Of a stretch of 64,000 nt of DNA, positions 3,013-63,965 are shown piece by piece. The notes below the pieces were generated by a model. The model saw only the letters and a program-made list of their open reading frames with translations, ran no database searches and was not told the DNA's origin. The stretch is from Patescibacteria group bacterium (GTDB taxonomy: Bacteria > Patescibacteriota > Minisyncoccia > Phycocordibacterales > JACOZG01), in assembly GCA_034658935.1 (NCBI GenBank), contig JAYEGE010000008.1, forward strand, positions 68,678 through 132,677. Reading direction: 5' to 3'. Both the position numbers and the translations under genes were made by a program. Positions within the stretch are counted from its first letter, which is position 1; each line of letters starts with the position of its first letter.

Positions 3013-4251
3013 ATGCCTAAAACACGTCGAATTAATTTTGATACCGCCGCCGCTACACCACTGGACCCGGCAATCAAGCGAGAGATGAATGCTTATCTAC
3101 GCAGCAATTTCGCTAACCCGTCTGGCTTGCACCAAGAGGGGGTGGCGGCGGCGCGTGAGCTTGCCAATGCCCGTGCGCGAGTGGCTGCCATCCTTGGTGC
3201 TCACTCTGACGAGATTGTTTTCACTAGTGGCGGGACTGAGGCGAATAACTTGGCGGTTTTTGGCGTAGTTGAGGCTCTTGAATCATTTGGACACGCCGTG
3301 TCCAAATCAAGGAAGCCCATTTGGACATGGCGTGTCCAAATGCAGGTGGTTACTTCGGCCATTGAGCACGCCTCGGTATTGGGGGCGGTGCGGGTGCTCG
3401 AGGGGCGGGGAGTGAAGGTGAGTTATCTGTCAGTAAATCGTGAAGGCTTAGTTAATCAAAAAAAATTGAAGACCGCCTTAAATAAAAAAACCAAACTCGT
3501 TTCTATTATTTATGCCCATAATGAAATTGGGGTGGTCCAACCGATCAGGGAGATTGCTAAAATTATCCGTCACCATTGTAAGCGGCATGGGACGGTTTAT
3601 CCTTATTTACATATTGATGCCTGCCAGGCGCCGCGTTTTCTTGACATCAACGTGGCTCGCTTGGGCGTAGACTTGATGACAATCAATGCTGGTAAGATTT
3701 ATGGCCCGCGTGGTATTGGTGCGCTCTACGTTAGGCGAGGTGTCGAGCTTGGGGCGCAATCAGTCGGTGGTAGCCAGGAGGGTGGACGGCGAGCAGGGAC
3801 TGAGAACGTGGCCGGTGCCATCGGCCTAGCCGGGGCCCTAGAAATTTGTGCTAAGGAGCGCGAAAAAGAAGCCAAGAGATTAAGCAAATTGCGCGATCAA
3901 TTAATTGCTGGCTTATTAAAGATTGATGGTGTTGAGTTGAATGGGCCACTGACAGAAAGATTGCCCAATAACGTTAATATTGGTGTTGGTGTCCCTAATC
4001 TAGAAAGTGAACAGGTGGTCATCGAGCTTGATGCCCAGGGCATTGCTTGTTCTACTGGCGCGGCTTGTAGCATTCCTAAACGTGACGGTTCCTATGTTAT
4101 AATGGCTCTAGGCAGAGACGAAGTGGCGGCGCGGAATGCAATTAGATTTACCCTTGGGCGGGAGGCGACGTCGGCTGACGTTAGGCATGTATTAAAAAGT
4201 CTAATAGCAATTTTCAAAAAATATGTACCAAGTCCCATCACTAAAATTTAG
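3013..4251 (+). CDS. cysteine desulfurase (class V aminotransferase, IscS/NifS group I)
   Basis: Has the TSGGTEANNLA motif, a PLP-lysine region and the C-terminal active-site Cys loop (ACSTGAACS). It carries an unusual in-frame palindromic insert at 3285-3343. Confidence 0.9.
   Translation: MPKTRRINFDTAAATPLDPAIKREMNAYLRSNFANPSGLHQEGVAAARELANARARVAAILGAHSDEIVFTSGGTEANNLAVFGVVEALESFGHAVSKSRKPIWTWRVQMQVVTSAIEHASVLGAVRVLEGRGVKVSYLSVNREGLVNQKKLKTALNKKTKLVSIIYAHNEIGVVQPIREIAKIIRHHCKRHGTVYPYLHIDACQAPRFLDINVARLGVDLMTINAGKIYGPRGIGALYVRRGVELGAQSVGGSQEGGRRAGTENVAGAIGLAGALEICAKEREKEAKRLSKLRDQLIAGLLKIDGVELNGPLTERLPNNVNIGVGVPNLESEQVVIELDAQGIACSTGAACSIPKRDGSYVIMALGRDEVAARNAIRFTLGREATSADVRHVLKSLIAIFKKYVPSPITKI
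3285..3343. repeat. tandem pair of about 23-nt palindromes (ATTTGGACACGCCGTGTCCAAAT) embedded in-frame in the desulfurase CDS
   Basis: Copy 1 (3286-3308) is a perfect palindrome. Copy 2 (3320-3342) has one mismatch. The two are separated by 11 nt. Confidence 0.8.
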
Positions 4252-5297: not shown

Positions 5298-8003
5298 ATG
5301 CCTCCATTCCATAATTTCACTACTAAAGCCAAGGAAGTGATCCGTAAGACTCACGAGTTAGCAATTGAACGTGGTCGAAACCAAGTTGGACCTATCCAGC
5401 TTTTGGCAGCTTTATTGCTCCAGGAGGAGAGCTCTTTTATTTCCATTCTCGATAAAATTGAGATTGACACCGTCATGTTGACTGACCACGTTATCGAGCA
5501 TCTAGATGGCGCGTCAGGTGGTGGCGGAGTTTCGTCAGCTCCCTATCAGATTTACATTACCCCCGAGCTGGTTAAGGTTTTCGAGACCTCAGTTAAGATC
5601 GCCGCTAATTTACAAGACGAGTTTGTTTCCACTGAGCATTTATTACTCGCTTTGCTAGAGACTCCCAATCAAGCTCACGAAATCTTGCAACGCTTCCGAG
5701 TAAGTAAGGACCAGATTTTGAAAGTGCTCCAAGACTTGCGTGACAATAAGGTCCATGAAGTTGATCAGCCAAAAAAGCTCCGGGCAATTGAGCGCTACAC
5801 CAAGAATCTGACCGAAATGGCCAGGCAAGATAAACTCGACCCCGTTATCGGTCGAGAAGCTGAGGTCCAACGTCTGATGGAGATCTTGTCTCGTCGGACA
5901 AAAAATAATCCTATCCTAATTGGAGAGGCTGGCACTGGTAAAACCGCGATTGCTGAGGGTCTAGCTATTAAGATTGCCAAGGCCGATGTTCCTGAATCTT
6001 TGCGAGAGAAGGAAGTAGTTTCCTTAGACTTGGGCTCTTTAATCGCTGGCACGAAGTATCGTGGTGAATTCGAAGATCGGTTAAAGAATGTCCTTAAGGA
6101 AATCGAGCGCTCGGGCAATAAGCTAATTCTCTTCATCGACGAGATCCATACTATTGTTGGCGCTGGTGCTGCCGAGGGGGCGATTGATGCTTCTAATATG
6201 TTGAAGCCAGCCTTGGCGCGCGGTGAACTCCGCGCTATTGGGGCAACTACGCTTAAGGAGTACCAAAAGCATATTGAACGAGATCAGGCCCTGACACGCC
6301 GCTTCCAACCTATCCATGTTGAGGAGCCTAGCGTTGATGACGCCATTGCTATTTTGCGGGGCTTGCAGGATAAGTATGAGTTTCATCACGGCATTCATAT
6401 TACCGATAAGGCCATTGTTGCGGCAGTTAAACTCTCTAGCCGTTATATTACTGACCGCTTCTTGCCCGACAAAGCAATTGATCTTATTGATGAGGCCTCT
6501 TCAGCTTTGCGCTTACAGCTTGAGAGTAAACCTCGCGAGTTGTCCGAGTCTGATATTAAAATTATGCGCCTCGAGGTGGAGAGGGAAGCCCTAAAGAAGG
6601 AGGTGGAAGTGAATAAGGACGCCAAGGCCAAGACCCGAATTAAAAAAATTGATAAAGAAATTAGTGATTTGCGTGAGAAGGTCAGCGAACTCGAACTCAA
6701 GTGGAAGAATGAGAAGGAGACCATTGGTGAGATTAAGACAATGAAGGGTGAGCTAGAGAGCTTGCGACTAGAGGCTGAACAGGCCGAGCTGCGTTCAGAC
6801 TTAGCCAAGGCCGCCGAGATTCGTTATGGCAAGCTCCCAACTATCCAAAAGAATCTGTCTTCACGAGAGACTCGCCTGAAGAAACTCCAACGTTCGCGAC
6901 GCCTACTTAAGGAAGAGGTGAATGAGGAGGAGATCGCTCAAGTGGTTGCTCGTTGGACCCACGTGCCAGTAACTAAGATGCTCGAGGGCGAGGTTGATCG
7001 CTTGGAGAGGATTGAAGAGGAGCTACGGAAACGAGTTCGTGGTCAAGATGAAGCAATCAAGAAAATCTCAGAAGCGGTTAAGCGTTCGCGCGCCGGTGTT
7101 TCTGATCCCGATAGGCCGATTGGCTCCTTCATGTTCTTGGGGCCAACAGGCGTTGGTAAGACAGAACTTGCCAGGGCGCTCGCCGCCTTCATGTTTGATG
7201 ACGAGAAGGCACTCGTCCGGGTGGACATGAGTGAATACATGGAGAAGTACTCGGTCTCTAAGATGATCGGCTCGCCGCCTGGCTATGTTGGTCATGAAGA
7301 AGGTGGGGCGCTTACTGAGACGGTCCGTCACCGCCCTTATTCTGTTCTCCTCTTCGACGAGATTGAGAAAGCTCATCCTGAAGTCTTTAATATCTTCCTC
7401 CAAGTATTAGATAATGGCCGCTTAACTGACGCTAAAGGGCGAGTGGTCAATTTCAAAAATACGATTATTTTGCTGACTTCTAATTTGGGGAGTGAGTATA
7501 TTAATCGTTTGCAACAACGAATCGGCTTTAATCAAAAAGATGGTGCCGAGTTGCCTGATCCAGAAGAGATGAAAGCTAAGATTCATGAGAGCCTAAAGAG
7601 TCATTTCCGTCCGGAGTTTTTGAATCGGCTTGACGACATTGTGATTTTCAATTCTCTTTCGGTAGAGCAGATTAAAGAGATCGTAGATATTCAATTAGAA
7701 TTGGTGCGCGAGCGTCTATCTCATAAATTAATCAAATTAGAAATTACCCCAGAAGCGAGGGGGTATTTGGCTCGCGAAGGTTATAGCGTCGAGTATGGTG
7801 TCCGCCCACTCAAGCGCTTGATCCAGACCAAGGTGCTTAATCAAGTCGCCGAGCTTATTATTGCCCGCAAGATTGATCGCGGTGGGGAGGTTTTGGTGAG
7901 AATGAAAGACGGCAAACTTGTGGTGGAACTAAAGAAAGCCTCCCGCACCCGCCGTGTCCGTTCAACTATCGACTCTCGCCCCGTAGCCGGGGGAGTAAAA
8001 TAA
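5298..8003 (+). CDS. clpB: ATP-dependent chaperone ClpB
   Basis: Two AAA+ modules (GEAGTGKT and GPTGVGKT Walker A) and a long coiled-coil middle domain. The N-domain is ClpB-like. Confidence 0.95.
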   Translation: MPPFHNFTTKAKEVIRKTHELAIERGRNQVGPIQLLAALLLQEESSFISILDKIEIDTVMLTDHVIEHLDGASGGGGVSSAPYQIYITPELVKVFETSVKIAANLQDEFVSTEHLLLALLETPNQAHEILQRFRVSKDQILKVLQDLRDNKVHEVDQPKKLRAIERYTKNLTEMARQDKLDPVIGREAEVQRLMEILSRRTKNNPILIGEAGTGKTAIAEGLAIKIAKADVPESLREKEVVSLDLGSLIAGTKYRGEFEDRLKNVLKEIERSGNKLILFIDEIHTIVGAGAAEGAIDASNMLKPALARGELRAIGATTLKEYQKHIERDQALTRRFQPIHVEEPSVDDAIAILRGLQDKYEFHHGIHITDKAIVAAVKLSSRYITDRFLPDKAIDLIDEASSALRLQLESKPRELSESDIKIMRLEVEREALKKEVEVNKDAKAKTRIKKIDKEISDLREKVSELELKWKNEKETIGEIKTMKGELESLRLEAEQAELRSDLAKAAEIRYGKLPTIQKNLSSRETRLKKLQRSRRLLKEEVNEEEIAQVVARWTHVPVTKMLEGEVDRLERIEEELRKRVRGQDEAIKKISEAVKRSRAGVSDPDRPIGSFMFLGPTGVGKTELARALAAFMFDDEKALVRVDMSEYMEKYSVSKMIGSPPGYVGHEEGGALTETVRHRPYSVLLFDEIEKAHPEVFNIFLQVLDNGRLTDAKGRVVNFKNTIILLTSNLGSEYINRLQQRIGFNQKDGAELPDPEEMKAKIHESLKSHFRPEFLNRLDDIVIFNSLSVEQIKEIVDIQLELVRERLSHKLIKLEITPEARGYLAREGYSVEYGVRPLKRLIQTKVLNQVAELIIARKIDRGGEVLVRMKDGKLVVELKKASRTRRVRSTIDSRPVAGGVK

Positions 8004-8063
8004 GATTAATCGACCCCGAGGGTCGATTAAGGGGGACGCTCTTTCCTGGCGCTGAGGGTCCCC

Positions 8064-10149: not shown

Positions 10150-11031
10150 GTGGGCGGGCTTGTCCTCATTATCTGTATGCCTAATAACAACTCAAATAAC
10201 GATAGCCAACAAAACGCGGCAGTTGGTTCTGACGGTGTGCCTTTAACCAAGAAGGAGCGTCGCCGCTTGAAGCGCGAGAAGAAACGCCATGAGAAGGTGG
10301 TGGAGGTACGTCGAGTCAAGCGAGGTCGTTGGGGTTGGTGGTTGCTCATCATCATCATTATCGCCGCCGCTGTTTTTGGTATTTACAAACTCACCGCCAA
10401 CAGCGGTCCGAGTGGGAACGGCGGGGGGCTAGTGGGCCCTGTTACTGGTGCCGATTGGCGACGTGGGCCGGAAGATGCCTCGGTGGTCTTGGTTGAGTTC
10501 AGTGATTTCCAATGTCCAGCTTGTGCCTTCTATGCCCCCTGGACTAAACAATTAACCGAAGACTTTCCCGAAGATTTGGCCGTTGTTTATCGGCATTTTC
10601 CTTTAAGTAGTATCTATATAAATGCTGAGTGGGCCGCTCGTGCCACTGAGGCCGCTGGCCTCCAGGATAGTTTTTGGGAGATGCATGACCTCCTATTTGA
10701 TCGTCAGGGAGACTGGGCGGAACGCTTAGATGCTAAAAATCTCTTTATTGAATATGCCGCCAGTCTTCTTGGCTTAAATGCTACCAAGTTTAAGCAGGAT
10801 ATGAATAATAATGAGGCGAAGCGCTTAGTTCTGGCGGACCGCCAGAGTGGCGTACAGTCTGGTGTCCGGGGCACCCCCACTTTCTTCCTTAATGGGGTTC
10901 TTCTCGATACTCCTCCAAGCTATGACGACTTTGCTGACTTGATCAGAGCTGAATTCGGAGTAGTGCTCCCGACGCAAACAGAAGATTCGAGCGGCGGCGA
11001 TGAGTCTAGTGACAATGCTGGCGATCAATAA
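10150..11031 (+). CDS. membrane-anchored DsbA-family thiol:disulfide oxidoreductase
   Basis: N-terminal TM segment and a thioredoxin fold with a CPAC active site (FSDFQCPACAFYAPW). Confidence 0.8.
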   Translation: MGGLVLIICMPNNNSNNDSQQNAAVGSDGVPLTKKERRRLKREKKRHEKVVEVRRVKRGRWGWWLLIIIIIAAAVFGIYKLTANSGPSGNGGGLVGPVTGADWRRGPEDASVVLVEFSDFQCPACAFYAPWTKQLTEDFPEDLAVVYRHFPLSSIYINAEWAARATEAAGLQDSFWEMHDLLFDRQGDWAERLDAKNLFIEYAASLLGLNATKFKQDMNNNEAKRLVLADRQSGVQSGVRGTPTFFLNGVLLDTPPSYDDFADLIRAEFGVVLPTQTEDSSGGDESSDNAGDQ

Positions 11032-11482
11032 AAAATTAATCTGGTTTTTCATCATCGTTAGTTTTATTGGCTTCGCCGATGCTACTTATCTGACGATTGG
11101 CTATTACCAGGGTGTTGTCCCGCCTTGCTTGGCTGAAGGTTGCGATACCGTGACCACTAGCGAATATGCCACTCTCGGTGGTATTTCAGTGGCATTAATG
11201 GGCGCAGTCTATTACCTGCTGGTTTGCTTGGCCGCCCTTCTTTACTTGATTGAAGATTGGCAGCCGGGGCGGTCTATTTTGCGCGTTCTCCCGGTTCTCG
11301 GCTTTGTTGGCTCGCTCTATTTTCTCTATCTCCAGGGTTTTGTAATTGGCGCTTGGTGTCAGTATTGTATTGTTTCCGCCGTGATCTCCACGTTTTTATT
11401 TGTGGCATCATTTTGGCTACTTGCCCCGAGGAACTCGAGGGGTGCTCGTCTCTCATCCACTGGATCTGAGAGTCCCTCTTAA
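11000..11482 (+). CDS. vitamin K epoxide reductase (VKOR)-family / DsbB-like membrane protein
   Basis: Multi-TM protein with a loop Cys pair (PPCLAEGC) and a CQYC active-site motif. It is adjacent to DsbA. Confidence 0.7.
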   Translation: MSLVTMLAINKKLIWFFIIVSFIGFADATYLTIGYYQGVVPPCLAEGCDTVTTSEYATLGGISVALMGAVYYLLVCLAALLYLIEDWQPGRSILRVLPVLGFVGSLYFLYLQGFVIGAWCQYCIVSAVISTFLFVASFWLLAPRNSRGARLSSTGSESPS

Positions 11483-12338
11483 ACCAAGTCATTTGGCGTT
11501 TGGCATATTGCCAATTAGTGATTTCTAGCTTTCGCAACAAGCTAATTTTCTCGCGTTGGGAATTATTTTGTTGCTTCCGCAAGAAGTCTGCAACGTAACG
11601 ATATTCTAAACCGAAATCATCTAATCTCTGCCAGGAGATTTTTTGTTTAGCGTGCAAGTTTTTCACCTCAGTGGTCAGGCCCCGCCTTAGTCTCTGTTGC
11701 AGTCGTTTGTTTATTTTCTCTTGCAAAATTTGCTTGCCTGGATTGAGGCCAATCCAGAAGGTGTCAAAGATTTGCCCCCCCAAGGACTCTCCTTCTGCAG
11801 AAGGAGAGTCCTTGGGGGGATTGGACGTTCTTGTCGCACTGGCAATCTCAATAGCCCTAATAAGACGACGAGGGTTATGTTTGTCGATATTCTTCACCCG
11901 AGCAGGATCAAGGACCTGGAGTTTTTTAAACAATTTAGTCGCTCGCCATCTCTCTAGTTCTTTTCTCAGTTCCAAATTAGGTGGTATTGCCGGCAAAGAT
12001 AGCTCGTTTAGTGCTGCCTGGATATATAACCCAGTGCCGCCGCAGATAATGGGCAGGTGGCCGCGCTCGGTAATTTCTCGGATTTTTTTCTGTGCCAGCT
12101 TTTTATATTTAGCCACGGTGAATTGCCCTCGCGGACTGGCGATATCAAGTAGGTGATGGGGGACGCCTTTCATTTCCTGTTTAGTGATCTTGCCACTGCC
12201 TATATCTAGGCCACGATAAACCTGGCGAGAATCAGCTGAGATCACCTCGCCATCAAGTTCCTTTGCCAACTCTACTGCCAGACCACTCTTGCCTGAGGAA
12301 GTTGGGCCAACTATTACTAAGACTTTTTGTCTGTCCAT
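11274..12338 (-). CDS. miaA: tRNA dimethylallyltransferase (MiaA)
   Basis: P-loop GPTSSGKS and the conserved DSRQVYRGLDIGSGK motif. It contains a 44-nt perfect palindrome in-frame. Its C-terminal about 70 aa overlap the convergent VKOR gene. Confidence 0.85.
   Translation of the reverse strand: MDRQKVLVIVGPTSSGKSGLAVELAKELDGEVISADSRQVYRGLDIGSGKITKQEMKGVPHHLLDIASPRGQFTVAKYKKLAQKKIREITERGHLPIICGGTGLYIQAALNELSLPAIPPNLELRKELERWRATKLFKKLQVLDPARVKNIDKHNPRRLIRAIEIASATRTSNPPKDSPSAEGESLGGQIFDTFWIGLNPGKQILQEKINKRLQQRLRRGLTTEVKNLHAKQKISWQRLDDFGLEYRYVADFLRKQQNNSQREKISLLRKLEITNWQYAKRQMTWFKRDSQIQWMRDEHPSSSSGQVAKMMPQIKTWRSRRKQYNTDTKRQLQNPGDRENRASQQSREPGERAK
11776..11819. repeat. 44-nt perfect palindrome inside miaA coding sequence
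   Basis: CCCCCCAAGGACTCTCCTTCTG|CAGAAGGAGAGTCCTTGGGGGG, with 22-bp arms and no mismatches. It encodes the same peptide PPKDSPSAEGESLGG on both strands. Confidence 0.9.
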
Positions 12339-16876: not shown

Positions 16877-19105
16877 CTACTTTGTTAATTTATGCGGATT
16901 ATGGTTTGGACAAGATTTGCTGCTACATCTCTCGGGGATCGTTTTTGTGCCTTGCATCATTAGGGAGCCGCACATGGTGCAGAGGGCGCCGGTTGGCTTG
17001 GCCTTGATGGCGTTCTTACAGGTGGGGTAATTGGAACAAGAATAGAAGATACCGAAACGTCCACGTTTCTCGGTCATCTCGCCCGTCTGACTTATCCCCG
17101 ACAAGCCTTTTTTGCAGACTGGACATTTGACACCAGTCCTTTTGGCCTCTTCAGCAGCTTCATCTTTCTTTATGTATTTACATTTTGGATAATTCGCACA
17201 AGAGACAAAGGTGCCGAAACGTCCTTCGCGCTCAACGAGTTTTCCATTTTTGCACTCAGGGCAAGCCTCACCAGTTTCTTTGGGGGCCATTTCCTTACCT
17301 TCAAGTGTCTTGGCACCAGTACACTCTGGGAATTTAGCGCAGGAATAGAATTTGCCTGAGCGGCTCAATTTGATAATCATCGGGCCATCGCAGGTTGGAC
17401 ATTTCATATCATCAGGCGCTTCACCAAGATTGGTGATCTTTGGCATCTTCTTCTTGGAGGCGATCTCGAGAGTGAAGGGGCCGTAGAAATCTTTCAGAGT
17501 TTTTACATAGTCGCGTTTGCCGTCGGCGATCTCGTCGAGCTCGTTTTCCATCTCGCTAGTGAAGGAGTCGCTGATATAAGAGGCGAAATTATTTTCCAAG
17601 AACTCGCTTACAACATCACCGGTCTCAGTCGGCTTCAGGCTCCGGCTCTCTTTATCAACATAGCCACGGTCGATGATGGTCTTAATAGTTGGTGCGTAGG
17701 TAGAAGGTCGGCCAATGCCGCGCTTCTCCAGCTCTTTTACCAATCCCGCTTCAGTGTAGCGATTGGGCGGCAGGGTTTCCTTGCCCTCGCTATTTATTTC
17801 CTTTAGATCGAGTGTCTCACCTTCTTCAACCACAGGTAATTCTGTTTCTTCGCCTTTGGCCGCCGGATCAGCTTTGAGCCAACCATCGAAGGTGGTTATG
17901 GAGCCGTTGGTTTCGAAGTTCGGCAGGGCCGCGGTTTTAACATCTGATGTTTTGACCGCGGCAGCAATTATCAATTTTGTTCGCTTAATTTTGGCGTCAC
18001 TCATCTGGCTAGCCACGACACGCGACCAGATCAATTTATAGAGTTTTTGTTCCTGCGGTGTTTTGCCGGCGCTACTTACGTTGGCATGAGATGGTCGTAC
18101 TGCCTCATGGGCTTCTTGGGCACTCTTAGATTTTGCGGCGTAACGACGTGTTTGTAGGTGGTCGGTACCAAATTTGTCTTTGACTACTCTAGCAATTTCA
18201 CCCAAGGCCTGTTGGCTTAGGTTAGTGCTGTCGGTACGCATATAGGTGATATGCCCGGCCTCGTAGAGTTTTTGAGCTAAGCGCATAGTAATAGAGGGGG
18301 AGTAACCTAAGCGTGACGAGGCCGCTTGTTGGAGGGTGGAGGTAGTGAAAGGTGGGCGCGGTGAGCGTTTGGCCTCGGTTTGCTTCACTTCCTTAATTTG
18401 CCATTTAGCTTTTTTGGCTTCAGTAACGATTTGCTCAGCTTCTTCACCCGCTTTCGGTTCTTCTGTGCAATGGGCCGGAAGCTCCTCCTTCTTGCTTGTC
18501 GCAAATAGTCCGTCGATTACCCAGAACTTCTCTGGGATGAAGGCGCGGATTTCTCGCTCGCGCTCAACCAAGATGCGGAGGGCGGGGGACTGAACGCGGC
18601 CGGCCGAGAGGCCATAGCGGAGCTTCTGCCATATTAGCCCAGACAGGTCGTAGCCGAAGAGTCGGTCAAGGACTCTCCTTGCTTCTTGGGCCTTCAATAG
18701 ATCCTCATCGATATCGCGTGGGTGCTTCATTGCTTCTTGCACTGCCCCCTCGGTGATTTCGTTGAAGGTGATCCGCTTGGTCTTAGATTTAGGTAATTTT
18801 AAGACTTCAGCGACGTGCCAGGCGATGGCTTCTCCTTCGCGGTCAGGGTCTGTGGCCAGGACTATTTCCTCCGCCTTTTTTGCCTTTTCTTTAAGTTCAG
18901 AAACGATCTTCTCTTTACCTTTGCTGATTTCGTAATGAGGAATAAAGCCGCCCTCGATATCGATGGCGTTCTTGTTTGATTTTGGTAAGTCGCGGACGTG
19001 CCCAACTGAGGCACGGACTGTGTATTCGTTATTTAAATATTTCTCAATTGTCTTCGCTTTGGCGGGCGACTCAACAATTAATAATTTGTTTGTTTTGTTT
19101 GGCAT
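16877..19105 (-). CDS. topA: DNA topoisomerase I
   Basis: TOPRIM start MPNKTNKLLIVESPAKAKTI, the catalytic core and multiple C-terminal Cys4 zinc ribbons. The start is taken at the internal ATG (19105) of the longer ORF. Confidence 0.9.
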   Translation of the reverse strand: MPNKTNKLLIVESPAKAKTIEKYLNNEYTVRASVGHVRDLPKSNKNAIDIEGGFIPHYEISKGKEKIVSELKEKAKKAEEIVLATDPDREGEAIAWHVAEVLKLPKSKTKRITFNEITEGAVQEAMKHPRDIDEDLLKAQEARRVLDRLFGYDLSGLIWQKLRYGLSAGRVQSPALRILVEREREIRAFIPEKFWVIDGLFATSKKEELPAHCTEEPKAGEEAEQIVTEAKKAKWQIKEVKQTEAKRSPRPPFTTSTLQQAASSRLGYSPSITMRLAQKLYEAGHITYMRTDSTNLSQQALGEIARVVKDKFGTDHLQTRRYAAKSKSAQEAHEAVRPSHANVSSAGKTPQEQKLYKLIWSRVVASQMSDAKIKRTKLIIAAAVKTSDVKTAALPNFETNGSITTFDGWLKADPAAKGEETELPVVEEGETLDLKEINSEGKETLPPNRYTEAGLVKELEKRGIGRPSTYAPTIKTIIDRGYVDKESRSLKPTETGDVVSEFLENNFASYISDSFTSEMENELDEIADGKRDYVKTLKDFYGPFTLEIASKKKMPKITNLGEAPDDMKCPTCDGPMIIKLSRSGKFYSCAKFPECTGAKTLEGKEMAPKETGEACPECKNGKLVEREGRFGTFVSCANYPKCKYIKKDEAAEEAKRTGVKCPVCKKGLSGISQTGEMTEKRGRFGIFYSCSNYPTCKNAIKAKPTGALCTMCGSLMMQGTKTIPERCSSKSCPNHNPHKLTK

Positions 19106-20064: not shown

Positions 20065-20144
20065 AATTATCCCTCCGCATATATTTTGAATTAACTGTAA
20101 TGAACAACGCTGTGCTGAGTTTAACTATCTGGATGTTTTTTGCA

Positions 20145-20172
20145 AATGTTAAACACCGGGTGTTTAACATTT
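20145..20172. repeat. REP-like 28-nt perfect palindrome (AAATGTTAAACACC|GGTGTTTAACATTT)
   Basis: It overlaps the dprA stop codon. The arms closely resemble the palindromes flanking the RAYT gene at 63272-63965 (AATGTTAGACATT..AATGTCTAACATT). Confidence 0.7.
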
Positions 20173-23043: not shown

Positions 23044-25014
23044 TTATACAAACTCGAAATCGATTACCTTATCTTTGAGGTCGGCCTTAACTACTTTTAT
23101 TTTAACTTGGTCGCCGAGGCGGTAGCGTCGGCCGCTATCTTTACCAACCATGGCGTAATTTTTTTCATCGAAGATATAGAAGTCGTCACTTAAGTCAGCT
23201 AGTCGTACCATTCCTTCAGATAAAGTTTCTTGCTCTTGAACATAGATACCCCACTTACTTAATCCGGAGATTATGCCATCGTAAGATTGGCCAATGCGCT
23301 CACTCATGTATTCGATCTGCTTATAGCGAATAGATTCTCGTTCGGCCTCTTGGGCGGCGACTTCTCGTTCAGTAGCATGTTCGGCCAGTCGATGATATTC
23401 CTCTAGGAGTTTGCTGGACGGCGCTTTGCCGCGGATATAATGATCAAGGAGGCGATGAACCATAATGTCTGGGTAGCGACGGATGGGGGAAGTAAAGTGG
23501 GCGTAATGTTTGAAGGCCAGCCCGTAATGCCCAATATTCTTCATCGAGTAGGTGGCCTTAGACATTGTCCGTAGGGCAGCGGTGTGGATCATCGCTTCTT
23601 CTGGGGTGCCCTCCACCGCCCTCAATAATTTATTCATGTTCTCTTGAGTGACGCCGTCCTCGTCGATCTTTAAGCGGTAACCTAGGGGCTCAATAAAATC
23701 GGCCAATTGTTTGAGTCTGTCGGTATCGGGGATGTCGTGGACGCGATAGACGAAGTGCTTGTCTTTATTCTCCACGATCTTAGAGACGAACTCAGCCACC
23801 TTACGATTAGCCAGGAGCATTAGGTCTTCTATTAAGAGATGCGTATCGGTGCGCTCCTTACGGATAACCTTAAGTGGCTTGCCGTTTTTGTCGAGAACGA
23901 ATTTAACCTCGTCAGATTCAAAGGCGATGGAGCCAGCATCCTCGCGTCCACGGCGCAGGTGCTTGGCTAGTTTGTTGAGGGCGGTAATTTCCCCGTGGTG
24001 CTTGCTCTGCTTGTCGTCTAGGGTCTCCTGGGCATCTTCGTAAGAGTAACGTTGGTCAGAATGGATTATGGTTCGGCCATACCACTCGTCGATTAGTTCG
24101 AACTTTGTTGCCTGTGCCGAGCCTGTCGAGGTAAAGGTGAAGACAGCCGAGAAGGTGAGCTTGTCTTCATTGGGGTTAAGGCTACATAAATCGTTTGAGA
24201 GCACCTCCGGCAACATAGGGATGGTGCGGTCAACTAGGTAGATAGAGGTAGCCCGTTTGATGGCCTCCCTGTCTAATTTGGTGCCTGGGCGGACATAATG
24301 GGCTGGGTCGGCAATATGGACTCCGACTTCTATTTGCCCGCTTTCCAATTCTTGGTAGGAGATGGCGTCATCAAAATCCTTAGCGTCAGCCGGGTCGATA
24401 GTGAAGGTGAGGACGGGGCGGAAATCGCGGCGCCCTTCTTTGTCCTCTGACTCGATCAGTTTAATTTCCTCGGCGAAGTCTGCCGCCGCGCCGGCCTTAA
24501 TTTCTTTAGCTTCTTTCTCAACCTCTGCTGGGAAACCAGAATCAAAGCCGCGCTCATAAACAATGGCTTGCATCTCAGTTTCGTGGCGACCAGCTACGCC
24601 GATATCCTTCATAACTTCGCCAACAGGATCTTTTTTGGAGTCTTTCCAATCAGTGATTTTAGCTAATACCTTGTCGCCGGGTTTAACCCCCTTTGTTTTT
24701 TTGTCAGCAACTAAGATGTCCTTATAGACCCGCTTATCGTCGGGAACCACAAAGAAAGAGTTGCCGTCTTTCTCAAGTAGCCCCACAAACTCTAGTCGTT
24801 TGCGCTCAACGATTTTAATAACTTGGCCGGAGCGTCTGTCGCTCCTGGAACTAGGGTCTATTTCTATTTCTACCAGGTCGCCCGGTAGGGCAGTGTTTAG
24901 TGAATTAGGCTCTATCTCTACTGCCTCGCTATCGCGCCCAAGTTCAGGGTCTAGCCTAACGTAGCCAAAACCCTTGGTTGAGATTCGGATTTCTCCGGTA
25001 AGTGTTTTTTTCAT
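23044..25014 (-). CDS. rnr: ribonuclease R (RNase II family, RNB domain + C-terminal S1)
   Basis: N-terminal cold-shock/OB region, RNB catalytic domain and C-terminal S1 domain. Confidence 0.9.
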   Translation of the reverse strand: MKKTLTGEIRISTKGFGYVRLDPELGRDSEAVEIEPNSLNTALPGDLVEIEIDPSSRSDRRSGQVIKIVERKRLEFVGLLEKDGNSFFVVPDDKRVYKDILVADKKTKGVKPGDKVLAKITDWKDSKKDPVGEVMKDIGVAGRHETEMQAIVYERGFDSGFPAEVEKEAKEIKAGAAADFAEEIKLIESEDKEGRRDFRPVLTFTIDPADAKDFDDAISYQELESGQIEVGVHIADPAHYVRPGTKLDREAIKRATSIYLVDRTIPMLPEVLSNDLCSLNPNEDKLTFSAVFTFTSTGSAQATKFELIDEWYGRTIIHSDQRYSYEDAQETLDDKQSKHHGEITALNKLAKHLRRGREDAGSIAFESDEVKFVLDKNGKPLKVIRKERTDTHLLIEDLMLLANRKVAEFVSKIVENKDKHFVYRVHDIPDTDRLKQLADFIEPLGYRLKIDEDGVTQENMNKLLRAVEGTPEEAMIHTAALRTMSKATYSMKNIGHYGLAFKHYAHFTSPIRRYPDIMVHRLLDHYIRGKAPSSKLLEEYHRLAEHATEREVAAQEAERESIRYKQIEYMSERIGQSYDGIISGLSKWGIYVQEQETLSEGMVRLADLSDDFYIFDEKNYAMVGKDSGRRYRLGDQVKIKVVKADLKDKVIDFEFV

Positions 25015-25058
25015 TATTTACGTATATTAGCTGATTTAGACGAAAAACAAAATGGCCT

Positions 25059-25080
25059 CGTGATTCACCGGTGAATCACG
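25059..25080. terminator. 22-nt perfect palindrome CGTGATTCACC|GGTGAATCACG with T-run on minus strand
   Basis: It overlaps the stop of the small acidic ORF. On the minus strand ATTTTGTTTTT follows. It lies 45 nt upstream of the rnr start, so it could act as terminator, attenuator or operator. Confidence 0.5.
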
Positions 25081-25306
25081 AGACCTCCTGGCTGGGAGAA
25101 TCCTCATCGCTGCTCTCTGACTCGGAGCCGCTTTGGGGACGAAGGAGCTTGGGGTCTACCGGAGGCAGGCTATCGAAATGTCGGTCGCAATCTGACAAGG
25201 CCGCCGCCGCCGCTTCTTCCTCCGTAGTCTCAGCTAGGCTGTGGGGTACTGCTATCCTTTTGACGCGTGCCCGCAGGCTCTCTGCCCATAGTCGTAACCA
25301 GTGCAT
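25076..25306 (-). CDS. possible small acidic Ser/Glu-rich protein (76 aa)
   Basis: Strong SD GAAGGAGGTG 6 nt upstream of the ATG on the minus strand. Low-complexity C-terminus, GC-rich. Confidence 0.35.
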   Translation of the reverse strand: MHWLRLWAESLRARVKRIAVPHSLAETTEEEAAAAALSDCDRHFDSLPPVDPKLLRPQSGSESESSDEDSPSQEVS

Positions 25307-38845: not shown

Positions 38846-40177
38846 ATGGTTAAGCAGAAGAAAAAGAAGAGTGTCGCCAAGAAAGCTCCACGGAAAGTGA
38901 AGGCCAAGAAAGTGGTAAGAAAGAAGGCCCGAGTCGGTGGGGCAACGAAGAAGACCGAGACTAAAACTAGGGTCAAAGCCAAAACTAAGGCGACTAAGGT
39001 TAAGAAACCTGCTCGTAAACAGACCAAAAAAACCACTTCAGTAAAATCGGCGAAGTCGACGAAGAAGATTGTGTCCAAGGTTAAGAAAAAGAAAAAAAGT
39101 CCCAAGACTAAGGAGCAGAAAGAGCAAAAAATAGAACGCCTATTAGAGAAGGGGCGCGGGCGGGGGTTTGTCACCTACGCTGAGCTTCTCAAAGAATTGC
39201 CCAATGTCGAAAAAGACCTGGTTTTTTTGGAAGAGATATATGACCGCTTCGAGGCGGCAGGAGTTGATGTTTTAGAGGAGGGGGGTCTCCTAGACGAGGT
39301 TAGCGATGAAAAGCTTCAGAAAAGTGGCCTGTTGAGTAGTGAAAGTACGTCATTAGATTCAATCCAGCTCTATCTTAAGGAGATTGGTAAACATAAACTG
39401 ATTAGTGCGGCCGATGAACGAGAATTAGCGCGACGTATTCTCAAGGGTGATGACGAGGCTAGACAGGCTTTGGCTCATGCCAACTTGCGTTTGGTGGTCT
39501 CCATCGCCAAACGTTATATCGGCCGGAGCCAGGACTTAACCTTGCTCGACTTGATCCAAGAGGGGAATCTGGGCTTGTTCAAAGCAGTGGAGAAGTTTGA
39601 CTGGACTCGCGGTTATAAATTTTCCACTTATGCTACTTGGTGGATTCGCCAGGCGGTAACTCGGGCTCTAGCTGACCAATCACGGACTATCCGGATTCCT
39701 GTTCACATGGTAGAGACGATTGCTAAATACAAGCAAGTAGTCCGGCGGTTGACCCAAGAGCTTGGCCGTGAACCTCTGGCCTCGGAAGTCTCGACTGAGA
39801 TGGGGATAGATATTGAAAAAGTTTATACTATCGAAAAGATTGACCAGAGTACAGCCTCACTTGATAAGCCGACTGATAACGATGAAGAGAAGTCTACTCT
39901 AGGTGAATTTATTGCCGATAATAAGATTGCGGCGCCAGATAAAGATTCTTCTCAACGTATTCTGCGGGATCAGATCCAAGAAATCTTGGGCGATCTTACT
40001 CCCAAGGAAAGGCGTATTTTAGAAATGCGTCATGGTCTGGATGATGGTATTATGCGGACTCTTGAGGAGGTGGGGAGGGAGTTTGGTGTGACCCGTGAAC
40101 GTATCCGTCAAATTGAAGCTAAGGCCCACGAAAAAATCCGCCAACACGGCAAGGTAAAAAGATTGCTCGGATACTAG
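38846..40177 (+). CDS. rpoD: RNA polymerase sigma-70 factor with Lys-rich N-terminal extension
   Basis: Regions 2-4 conserved ([31 protein letters not shown]). Confidence 0.9.
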
Positions 40178-40184
40178 CCACTTG

Positions 40185-40258
40185 CTCCACTTGGAGGAAG
40201 AACCTCCAAGTGGGGGTGTTTAAATAAAAACAACAGTGCCACGGCGCTGTTGTTTGAA
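40185..40258. terminator. two back-to-back hairpins forming a bidirectional terminator between rpoD and the convergent DsbA-like gene
   Basis: CCACTTGGAGG..CCTCCAAGTGG and AAACAACAGTGCC..GGCGCTGTTGTTT. Confidence 0.55.
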
Positions 40259-60880: not shown

Positions 60881-61612
60881 ATGACCGACACCCTGCTCCA
60901 ACTTAAAGATGTCCACGTTCAATACGGCGGCGTTAAGGCCCTCGATGATGTGTCAGTGGAGATTGATGAGGGAGAGGTGGTGGCCTTGATGGGGCCCAAT
61001 GGGGCAGGGAAGTCGACGGTGCTTAAGGCGATCTTTGGCCTGGCGCCAATTGCCAAGGGTAAAGTGCTCTGGCATGAGCATCCGGTGGCTCCGCGACCAG
61101 ACGAGATGGTGGCTCGAGGACTCTCCTTCGTTCCTCAAGGTCGGCGGGTGTTCCGCCGCCTAACGGTGCAGGAGAACTTGGAGATTGGTGGTTATGTTAT
61201 TAAAGATAAGAAATTGGTCCAGGAGAGGATAAAGGAAGTCTCAGAAATCTTCCCTGACCTCAAAACTAAACTTAAGGCCAAATCGGGGACCCTCTCTGGC
61301 GGCCAACAACAAATGCTCGCCATCGCCCGCGGCCTCATTACTGAGCCTAAGGTACTCTTACTCGACGAACCTTCGCTCGGCCTCTCGCCTAAATTAGTTA
61401 AGGAAGTCTTTGCTAAAATTAAAGAAATAAACGAGCGCCATAAGACGGCGATTATGGTAGTAGAACATAATTTGAAGTCCCTTCTCCAAATTGTCCACCG
61501 AGCCTATGTTCTCGACAAGGGGCGCCTGGTCGGCGATGGTCCCGCCGCCCAATTTGCTGAAAAAGATTTCCTCAAGAAAGTCTTTCTCGGCCAAGTTGAA
61601 GCAGCAGCCTAG
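60881..61612 (+). CDS. livF: ABC transporter ATP-binding protein (LivF type)
   Basis: Walker A GPNGAGKST, signature LSGGQQQ, Walker B LLLDEP. Confidence 0.85.
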   Translation: MTDTLLQLKDVHVQYGGVKALDDVSVEIDEGEVVALMGPNGAGKSTVLKAIFGLAPIAKGKVLWHEHPVAPRPDEMVARGLSFVPQGRRVFRRLTVQENLEIGGYVIKDKKLVQERIKEVSEIFPDLKTKLKAKSGTLSGGQQQMLAIARGLITEPKVLLLDEPSLGLSPKLVKEVFAKIKEINERHKTAIMVVEHNLKSLLQIVHRAYVLDKGRLVGDGPAAQFAEKDFLKKVFLGQVEAAA

Positions 61613-61617
61613 CTGTG

Positions 61618-61650
61618 CAACACTAAGTGTTGCACAGCTAGTGTCTTGAA
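61618..61650 (+). terminator. hairpin terminator after livF
   Basis: AGCTGTGCAACACTAAGTGTTGCACAGCT is a perfect palindrome. Confidence 0.5.
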
Positions 61651-63271: not shown

Positions 63272-63300
63272 AGATGTTAGACATTCAATGTCTAACATCT
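63272..63300. repeat. 29-nt perfect palindrome (AGATGTTAGACATT-C-AATGTCTAACATCT), REP-like element flanking RAYT
   Basis: It overlaps the RAYT stop codon. It is the exact reverse complement of the core of the palindrome at 63937-63965. Confidence 0.85.
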
Positions 63301-63924
63301 GTTGATATCTAACTCCTCTTCTATTTCCTCAGCCTTTTTCTTGGCTACAGAGCTGGCGAGAAAGCTTTTGTATTCGTCTTTATCATTAAATTGATCAGTG
63401 ACGATACTCGGAGTCAATAAACAGGGCCAGCGATTAGATTTTAAGTAATCGTTACGGCTATTCCATCCGCCGGTATGTTTATGAATATAGGCAGAGAGAT
63501 GAAGAAGTTGGTCATTATCTTCAATATGAACCGATTTGTATCGTCCTTGAAATAAATGGCCAGATTGCTGGTATTTATTATTGAAGTATTTGGTATGGGA
63601 ATTGAGCAATCTTTGCATGTAGCGAAATATCCCCTCATCGACATGGTTTTTTAGTAAGAGGTGGAAGTGGTTGGGCATAAGGGAGAAAGCCACCAAGGAG
63701 ACCTTCCTTTGCTGGACAATTTCTTTAATCGTTTCTTGGGAAGTGTTAAACATTGAATGTCTAACAAAATAGGAGACAGGGCGGGTTAGATTGGTGAGGG
63801 TTAGGTCTGATTGAAAGTGTAAGATCGAGAACAAAAATCTCACCCAATCTTGTTGATCCCGAAAAATCTGGTTTTTCAAAACCCCGCGGTTATATACATG
63901 GTAGTATTCGTCAGGAATTTTCAT
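63292..63924 (-). mobile_element. REP-associated tyrosine transposase (RAYT), IS200/IS605 Y1 HUH family
   Basis: N-terminal YHVYNRG, HUH motif MPNHFHLLL and catalytic Tyr in GRYKS. Inverted palindromic repeats flank it. Confidence 0.8.
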
Positions 63925-63936
63925 CTGTCTATTATC

Positions 63937-63965
63937 TAATGTTAGACATTGAATGTCTAACATTA
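63937..63965. repeat. 29-nt perfect palindrome (TAATGTTAGACATT-G-AATGTCTAACATTA), REP-like element
   Basis: It sits 12 nt upstream of the RAYT ATG. It is inverted relative to the downstream copy. Confidence 0.85.

Follow-up and report, generated by a model that had tools for sequence, protein, structure and literature searches.

A probable REPIN-like palindromic doublet in frame within a cysteine desulfurase gene of Patescibacteria

A palindromic element of 59 nt lies in frame within the cysteine desulfurase gene of a Patescibacteria group bacterium (GenBank assembly GCA_034658935.1), on a 64,000-nt stretch of contig JAYEGE010000008.1 (positions 68,678 to 132,677 of the forward strand) that is referred to below as the window and whose own numbering is used throughout. 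We consider it probable (about 0.7) that this element is a REPIN-like doublet, a pair of inverted units of repetitive extragenic palindrome (REP) type, belonging to a REP/RAYT (REP-associated tyrosine transposase)-type family of Patescibacteria and moved by a RAYT-like transposase. The evidence for this reading comes from the hairpin architecture of the element, its presence at the same site in orthologous genes, a dispersed family of repeats with the same core and a repeat-flanked gene for a transposase of the Y1/HUH class located at 63.3-63.9 kb in the window.

The element consists of two 23-nt units separated by an 11-nt spacer (Table 1). Both their coordinates and their in-frame position agree with an earlier note made from the sequence alone, as do its statements that the first copy is a perfect palindrome and the second has one mismatch. 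Unit 1 reads ATTTGGACACG-C-CGTGTCCAAAT, with 11-bp arms free of mismatches around a single central base, and unit 2 (ATTTGGACATGGCGTGTCCAAAT), whose arms contain a single T.G mismatch, is the reverse complement of unit 1 apart from one transition. Since unit 1 is centred on C and unit 2 on G, and the C...G next to the units pairs too, the whole of 3284-3342 forms one 24-bp hairpin, with 96% complementarity between the two arms (inverted repeat I1); what had been called a tandem of palindromes is therefore a doublet, but not a simple tandem, because its units are inverted and pair into one long hairpin. This hairpin is the minimum-energy structure in the predicted folds of both RNA (-46.6 kcal/mol, z -8.6) and DNA (z -8.3). 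No family reached its gathering score in an Rfam 15 scan of 3150-3480, where generic microRNA precursor matches remained far below threshold, and a promoter and terminator scan gave no signal at the element.

The host gene encodes a class-V aminotransferase of the cysteine desulfurase type, matching IscS/NifS entries of the Protein Data Bank (PDB) with an E value of 1e-74; residues K228, C352 and H119 are conserved and all usual invariant residues are present. An identical protein is recorded for a metagenome-assembled Patescibacteria genome (P0001). In-frame translation of the element gives SFGHAVSKSRKPIWTWRVQM (residues 91-110); the stretch GHAVSKSRKPIWTWRVQ belongs to the predicted product. 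Sixteen residues located precisely at the element have no counterpart in A. fulgidus IscS2 or in solved IscS structures, and close desulfurase homologues from the candidate phyla radiation (CPR) that are without it have an even shorter loop. None of 80 more distant metagenomic homologues (best 50% identical) has a palindrome at the site, which bounds the clade in which the element occurs. The alignment gap and these palindrome-free homologues bear out the view that the segment is an insertion relative to IscS/NifS proteins, and the added length, put at about 20 residues in the earlier note, is about 16-20. The insertion corresponds to a low-confidence loop: in an AlphaFold2 model with a mean pLDDT of 88.5, residues 91-110 score only 56-59 and are modelled as coil between a helix (74-94) and a strand (111-115).

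Seven syntenic orthologues, which all share the gene order IF-2, DUF4446, desulfurase, SOD, protease and ClpB, comprise five closest sequences with 62-67% protein identity and two Vogelbacteria-like ones (L007 and L008) with about 52%. The orthologous segment, which as non-palindromic DNA would have refuted the reading of the earlier note, is palindromic at the same site in all seven, with a single unit in L006; the insertion at this locus is thus common to the orthologues and old, not recent. The orthologue core is GGACAC-NNN-GTGTCC, start-to-start spacings are 34, 22 or 18 nt, and the alignment shows homology of the focal spacer with the 13-nt spacers found in L003 and, in inverted form, in L002. 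In every two-unit orthologue the central triplets of the units are reverse-complementary to each other, as they are in the window (GCC/GGC): they read TTC/GAA in L001 and L005, CAG/CTG in L002, CCA/TGG in L003 and CGA/TCG in L007 and L008. Furthermore, the internal mismatch of each unit in L003 and L008 is exactly compensated in the partner unit. Counted on the seven-sequence alignment, ten pairs (21 cells) changed on both sides under a model of one long hairpin, a value reached by none of 500 shuffles, compared with three under a model of two small hairpins, reached by 76 of 500. Identity among the orthologues amounts to 94% in the stems, 25% in the centres, equal to random, and 40% at four-fold degenerate sites.

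These data bear directly on whether the loop is an enzyme adaptation selected at the protein level. The insertion is in frame in all seven orthologues, as such selection would have it, but the first unit is read as GHxVSK and the second as WTxxVQ, with both units read as GHxVS in L007 and L008; because the units are translated in differing frames, it is the nucleotides that are conserved and not the peptide. With only one unit in L006, the low pLDDT of the loop and three different peptides made from the same DNA in other genes, this explanation is very improbable.

In L007 a second doublet hairpin was observed within the same desulfurase gene (loci listed at 10539-10577, 17540-17578 and 18075-18097), as well as the same doublet inverted after rpmG and a singlet inside miaA. 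All four elements, which lie within 21 kb, have the centre CGA/TCG, so that the family is homogeneous in that genome.

The exact focal 23-mer and its 9-mer half-site have no second copy within the 64-kb window, a result that initially made a repeat family look unlikely until degenerate searches showed otherwise. The consensus TTRGACAY-N3-RTGTCYAA, common to the focal units and to the repeats that flank the transposase gene, has 6 matches in the window against 0.11 expected, and four extended palindromes with an ACAY-N3-RTGT core are found elsewhere in the window and none in shuffles; shuffled windows gave zero matches to the focal 23-mer with up to three mismatches allowed. The search for further copies that the earlier note proposed was accordingly negative within the window for the exact sequence and positive for the degenerate one.

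Outside the window, the pattern GGACAYNNNRTGTCC-N0-30-GGACAYNNNRTGTCC was scanned for in one genome per species, with about one chance match expected by our uniform-base estimate. It occurs at at least 119 loci, nearly all in Patescibacteria and often on several contigs of one genome, including Saccharibacteria, Paceibacterota and Kaiser-, Moran-, Falkow-, Niyogi-, Jorgensen-, Nealson-, Portnoy- and Vogelbacteria. The repeat unit GGACAY-N3-RTGTCC also occurs outside the desulfurase gene and is not gene-specific, and a tblastn comparison of the desulfurase with these loci found no desulfurase locus among the matches listed. Among the same matches the centres are complementary in 81 of 126 doublets, where chance would give 1/64; in a control of 54 viral contigs with the same pattern, they are so in 2 of about 60. 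The same 8-kb loci (887 kb) contain 26 further singletons, where about 0.2 are expected, plus extra doublets, and centres match in 59% of pairs within a locus versus 18% between loci, so that the copies of one genome are related to each other. In doublets with 13-nt spacers the hairpin is perfect and measures 20-26 bp around a loop of 3 nt, the partner of a mismatch-bearing unit always has the complementary mismatch, and 57 of 73 genic doublets show perfect 15-nt pairing between both copies. Sense-strand wobbles, counted as 3 G.T versus 2 A.C, do not tell the RNA from the DNA level. Outer stems vary from copy to copy, spacers measure 0-30 nt and the flanks at the foot of the hairpin vary (TTTGG, CTTGG, GTTAGG, TGTAGG, GCGG and others), with GTAG in a subset only (for example L013 and L014) and hence not conserved. 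Copy density is moderate, about one per 13-25 kb in the sampled loci.

A family of IMG/VR phages (L209, L210, L215, L218, L223 and about 20 more), which accounts for most of the 54 viral hits, has pairs of the form GGACACGGGATGTCC-N18-GGACATTCGATGTCC with flanking G/C runs; these share the palindrome core, have non-complementary centres and a fixed spacing of 33 nt, and resemble paired operator sites.

Of the 126 doublets among the matches listed, 91 (72%) lie within an open frame of 450 nt or longer; for random positions the share is 88%. The host genes assigned by Pfam are RecG, DnaE, SHMT, MetRS, ComEC, TsaD, a glycosyltransferase, LigA, GltX, UvrA (at the same site in three genomes), UvrB, TGT, GatB, PheT and PriA, and in-gene copies often lie at domain borders. 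Genic doublets use all three reading frames, the repeat core having no stop codon in any of them, and the second unit shows a mild excess of the GGA-CAY-NNN-RTG frame (GHxMS; 41 of 73, about 24 expected). The idea of an internal start site (GGA...RTG) was dropped, as the variants GGACTT/AAGTCC and GGACGT/ACGTCC lack RTG. The DnaE gene at L013:865-3726, which carries a doublet, also holds an intein with a LAGLIDADG domain.

Turnover of the repeats can be followed in LigA, where one Saccharibacteria metagenome-assembled genome (MAG) served as query against its 120 closest relatives (73-81% identity). A hot-spot between the FDERVRK and YDLELKIDG motifs (L262-L266, L038) is empty in most of these relatives, with palindrome-free DNA in L265. 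Its other states are a singlet (TGCGCGGACAT-CCG-ATGTCCGCGCA in L266), a doublet (peptide GHPMSxGHRMS), compensated core variants (GGGACGT-ACG-ACGTCCC and a doublet of GGGACTT-ACG-AAGTCCC) and, in L263, a nested arrangement in which a perfect 45-nt hairpin adjoins an older palindrome with no evident target-site duplication. The earlier description of a small mobile palindromic insert is therefore supported by the dispersed family, by presence, absence and nesting at LigA and by the repeat-flanked Y1/HUH gene, but not in the sense of a recent insertion at the desulfurase.

The product of that gene matches Pfam PF01797 above the gathering score (E 1.1e-12), and its best NCBIfam model is REP_Tyr_transpos, with 37 bits against a cut-off of 80, followed by 16.7 bits for IS200. 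Its AlphaFold model (pLDDT 91) has as best fold match in the PDB 4er8_A, the E. coli RAYT with a REP hairpin (E 3.8e-5), with the TnpA proteins of IS608 and ISDra2 just behind; a sequence profile search of the PDB gave a weak match to ISDra2 TnpA (E 0.006). A tblastn search with E. coli RAYT and IS200 queries had found no match, a false negative, before Pfam located the gene. REPs lie on either side of the gene (Table 1), and their centres, TGA and TCA, are mutually complementary. Transposase homologues are present in seven pattern-selected loci among the matches listed, and in five of these (L048, L094, L083, L120 and L066) GGACAY-N3-RTGTCC palindromes directly flank the homologue; a Pfam scan of the repeat-rich locus L123 found no transposase. 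About 2957 homologues occur in public data, those with names being from Patescibacteria and one being annotated by JGI as a REP-associated tyrosine transposase.

Within the gene, an imperfect REP-like sequence is translated in frame as part of a motif, FV[KR]HS[VM]FN, that has been conserved in the majority of the 35 nearest homologues inspected and whose surrounding 70-residue spacing is kept in 84 of 120. The motif back-translates to GTTAAACAY-NNN-RTGTTTAAC, the repeat subfamily of window position 20144 and L007:18075, and the same region of the gene in L048, L094 and L083 carries a perfect palindrome or a doublet. The sequence might serve autoregulation, or the repeat may have originated from it.

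Many transposase homologues (proteins P0242-P0360) come from contigs no longer than about 1-2 kb. Metagenome assembly is probably interrupted by the repeats, and MAGs are therefore likely to understate the copy numbers. The disturbance of assemblies by hairpins and repeats, together with the many homologues on contigs of about 1 kb, could also point to an assembly or amplification artefact that makes inverted chimeras; with the element at the same site, in frame and in lineage-specific variants in independent NCBI, ENA, JGI and Logan assemblies, the probability of such an artefact is close to nil.

Table 1. Coordinates of the focal element, its host gene, the transposase gene and related repeats in the window.
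Feature	Position	Strand	Details
NifS/IscS-type cysteine desulfurase gene, intact	3013..4251	+	412 aa; pyridoxal phosphate lysine K228, catalytic C352
Whole focal element	3284..3342	+	hairpin; arms 3284-3307 and 3319-3342 (24 nt each), loop 11 nt
REP-like unit 1	3285..3307		ATTTGGACAC-GCC-GTGTCCAAAT; peptide GHAVSK
Spacer (hairpin loop)	3308..3318		11 nt, CAAGGAAGCCC
REP-like unit 2	3319..3341		ATTTGGACAT-GGC-GTGTCCAAAT; peptide WTWRVQ, frame differs from unit 1
Intergenic family member	20144..20172		AAATGTTAAACAC-CGG-GTGTTTAACATTT; 3' end of dprA; subfamily also at L007:18075
Possible further member	61609..61641		CTAGCTGTGCAACAC-TAA-GTGTTGCACAGCTAG; 15-bp stems; only the ACAC-N3-GTGT core shared
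REP at 3' side of transposase gene	63272..63300		AGATGTTAGACAT-TCA-ATGTCTAACATCT; overlaps stop codon
Y1/HUH tyrosine transposase gene, RAYT-like	63292..63924	-	210 aa; motifs YHVYNRG, NHFHLLL, SAYIH
Imperfect REP-like sequence, in frame inside transposase gene	63745..63765		peptide FVRHSMFN
REP at 5' side of transposase gene	63937..63965		TAATGTTAGACAT-TGA-ATGTCTAACATTA; 12 nt upstream of ATG

The possible further member at 61609-61641 shares bases with the stop codon of the gene at 60881-61612, which encodes an ABC-transporter ATPase. Inside miaA (open reading frame (ORF) 11274-12338, minus strand), a perfect 20-bp hairpin at 11776-11819 (CCCCCCAAGGACTCTCCTTC-TGCA-GAAGGAGAGTCCTTGGGGGG; in-frame peptide PPKDSPSAEGESLG) shows the same nested architecture (AAGGA-CTC-TCCTT, AAGGA-GAG-TCCTT) in an unrelated sequence, and the MiaA protein is only about 4 residues longer there than that of B. 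halodurans. A doublet hairpin with an unrelated core and 22-bp stems, TGCGGAAGT-CAA-ACTTCCGCA ... TGCGGAAGT-TTG-ACTTCCGCA, is found in the enolase gene at L264:18237-18283, which suggests that these genomes contain several hairpin families or have a general palindrome-forming process. Perfect hairpins with 10-11-bp stems of differing sequence at 8006-8030, 25057-25082 and 40187-40213 directly follow genes (clpB, with its ORF ending at 8003, and ORFs 23044-25014 and 38846-40177, respectively) and may be terminators or members of other repeat families.

An origin of the focal element on the spot, through hairpin-templated replication errors such as template switching, quasi-palindrome correction or fold-back duplication and without any transposition, would account for the recurrence of a palindrome nested in a hairpin with unrelated sequences, as in miaA and the enolase gene, for outer stems that differ between copies as if extended from local flanks, for unit mismatches that are always complemented in the partner unit and for the record inverted-repeat density of CPR phyla. 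It has little probability as a full account, because it cannot account for one and the same sequence of 15-25 nt in hundreds of loci and genomes that are unrelated, and leaves unexplained both the repeat-flanked Y1 transposase gene in six loci and the homogeneity of centres within a genome. Template switching is nevertheless a plausible route from singlets to inverted doublets and for their upkeep, and may lie behind unrelated in-gene hairpins such as that of miaA.

Under the REPIN-like reading, the two inverted REP-type palindromes (core GGACAY-N3-RTGTCC) would fold into the 24-bp hairpin in single-stranded nucleic acid. Y1/HUH enzymes of the RAYT type act on hairpins in single-stranded DNA, and the Y1/HUH RAYT-like transposase of the window, flanked by the same repeats, would mobilise a family that proliferates in Patescibacteria genomes. 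One copy would have landed in the codons of a surface loop of the desulfurase, where the absence of a stop in any frame of the core and an added length that is a multiple of three kept the gene open, and the extra residues would form a floppy loop. We infer that the resident transposase or its ancestors moved the focal copy, and that the hairpin is kept perfect by processes at the level of the element and not for the benefit of the desulfurase. Such upkeep could work through other family members, by gene conversion or renewed copying, through repair templated by the hairpin, or through selection for recognition by the transposase. The stems are frozen, and the centres are free but complementary and agree with the family of their own genome. 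This pattern fits copying or conversion from family members, together with hairpin-templated repair, and it fits selection on the nucleic acid equally well.

Such selection could also come from the host, with the hairpin, or the paired palindromes as binding sites of a conserved protein (possibly the domesticated RAYT itself), acting as a cis-element that purifying selection maintains; candidate functions concern the mRNA (its stability, or control by RNase III), translation (a ribosome pause ahead of the next domain) or replication, repair or chromosome organisation. The contrast between stems and four-fold sites and the covarying centres would then follow directly, and the same holds for sites kept across deep lineages in UvrA (three genomes), RecG, ComEC and LigA, for the many copies at domain borders, for the favoured GGA-CAY-NNN-RTG frame of the second unit and for the phage family in which the same palindrome forms paired operator-like sites; RAYTs, moreover, are considered single-copy genes that have been domesticated, perhaps in the service of the host (PMC3337134). 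Against this, the element is dispensable, being absent from most close LigA relatives and from all 80 distant desulfurase homologues, the host genes have no function in common, frames, spacers and outer stems vary freely, and neither an Rfam family nor a promoter or terminator signal coincides with the element. Overall, host selection is an unlikely explanation, though the chief rival of the REPIN-like reading. Operators of the IscR or LexA type, parS/matS-like sites, DNA-uptake sequences, bulge-helix-bulge or bypass elements and hairpins of diversity-generating retroelements were considered and dropped, because the insertion is dispensable and dispersed over unrelated genes and a Y1 transposase gene is flanked by the repeats.

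Several observations weigh against the REPIN-like reading. A dead insertion should have decayed, and stems that are 94% identical next to four-fold sites at 40% have not, so that some constraint or repeated homogenisation has to be assumed. The nearest orthologues are 62-67% identical and offer no close relative for comparison, which keeps any presence/absence polymorphism at the focal site out of view. Neither a target-site duplication nor a target motif was found for the family. Classical REPINs are extragenic, and perfect hairpins of unrelated sequence also occur inside genes (window 11776 and L264:18237), so that a more general palindrome-generating process may contribute. The RAYT score of the transposase is below the NCBIfam cut-off, its PDB profile reaches IS200/IS605 TnpA weakly and its activity is predicted from sequence. 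Finally, the focal units (TTGGACAC) differ in sequence from the repeats flanking the transposase gene (TTAGACAT), and the resident enzyme may therefore not recognise them.

A bolder and rather doubtful possibility is that the repeats represent an ancient, Patescibacteria-wide REPIN-RAYT partnership that, in contrast to all REP systems described, resides mainly inside ORFs and whose hairpins, with frozen stems and free but complementary centres, are kept very long at orthologous sites of core genes by constraint on the nucleotides, for a function of the cell or of the RAYT. In that case the transposase might interact with the hairpins in replication or repair, the hairpins might make translation pause at domain borders, or the RAYT might regulate itself through its embedded copy.

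REP/REPIN elements, regarded as extragenic, are best known from Proteobacteria; the elements and RAYTs of that group were reportedly treated by Nunvar in 2010 and by Bertels and Rainey in 2011. Inverted REP doublets, genome-specific variants and a short Y1 transposase gene flanked by repeats together make up the defining REP/REPIN-RAYT arrangement (PMC3337134). The Patescibacteria family resembles this arrangement in its palindromes of about 20 nt, imperfect and repeated at many sites, in the inverted pairing of units into a near-perfect hairpin, in its genome-specific variants, in the short Y1/HUH gene directly flanked by repeats, whose fold is nearest to E. coli RAYT 4er8, and in its long-lived, vertically inherited presence at orthologous sites. 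It differs in that most copies, the focal one included, are in frame in genes (the window has intergenic exceptions at 20144, 63272 and 63937), whereas REPINs are extragenic by definition. Further differences are the shorter units, with a 15-nt core and spacers of 0-30 nt, the moderate copy density, the lack of a conserved GTAG foot and the Patescibacteria host, as well as the use of one core, GGACAY/RTGTCC, across many class- or phylum-level lineages and a transposase of about 210 aa whose YHV..RG and HUH motifs are separated by an insert of 70 residues and whose score is below the RAYT cut-off.

To our knowledge, in-frame selfish palindromes are known essentially from Rickettsia. The Rickettsia palindromic elements, which lie in frame in housekeeping genes according to the summary of Ogata et al. 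(2000) in PMC10969869, are likewise a palindromic family of a reduced genome, spread over numerous unrelated genes of this kind, with added peptides at positions compatible with the fold. They are about 100-150 bp long, have a conserved peptide, decay, and are confined to Rickettsia with no known transposase, whereas the Patescibacteria units measure 15-25 nt, use three frames and persist as perfect palindromes alongside a Y1 transposase, making this an analogy only. Small hairpin elements, a Y1 HUH enzyme, single-stranded DNA and the lack of an evident target-site duplication (L263) are shared with palindrome-associated transposable elements (PATEs) derived from IS200/IS605 and with elements like miniature inverted-repeat transposable elements; unlike these, the Patescibacteria family has no distinct left and right ends, tnpB or identified target tetranucleotide, and its transposase gene appears to be single-copy and is flanked by repeats like that of a RAYT. 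The coding palindromes of Nematomorpha mitochondria (PMC6649704) are also perfect inverted repeats in translated genes, with hairpin and frame preserved, but reach 284 bp, overlap conserved protein regions and come with neither a dispersed family nor a transposase.

A literature search on CPR palindromes, on REP/RAYT in Patescibacteria and on the core sequence, with most subscription journals outside its coverage, found no description, and a REP/RAYT system of Patescibacteria is apparently undescribed so far. In a 2026 survey, CPR phyla (Campbellbacteria and Kaiserbacteria) exceed all other phyla in the density of perfect inverted repeats (PMC13155455), a result that the present family helps to explain by offering a concrete cause. 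The family would represent a REP/RAYT-type system that extends through the CPR, with copies mostly in genes of essential type and with hairpins that show compensatory changes and remain perfect even where the identity of the surrounding genes has fallen to 50%. It would also explain part of the many small insertions that look odd in alignments of CPR proteins, and it advises caution to annotators and assemblers, who may meet breaks and spurious loops at the repeat sites. Both hairpins and enzyme are open to synthesis and assay, which makes the system a tractable test of RAYT-type domestication. If the repeats do represent an ancient partnership that dwells in ORFs, this would explain the record inverted-repeat density of the CPR and provide a steady source of new surface loops.

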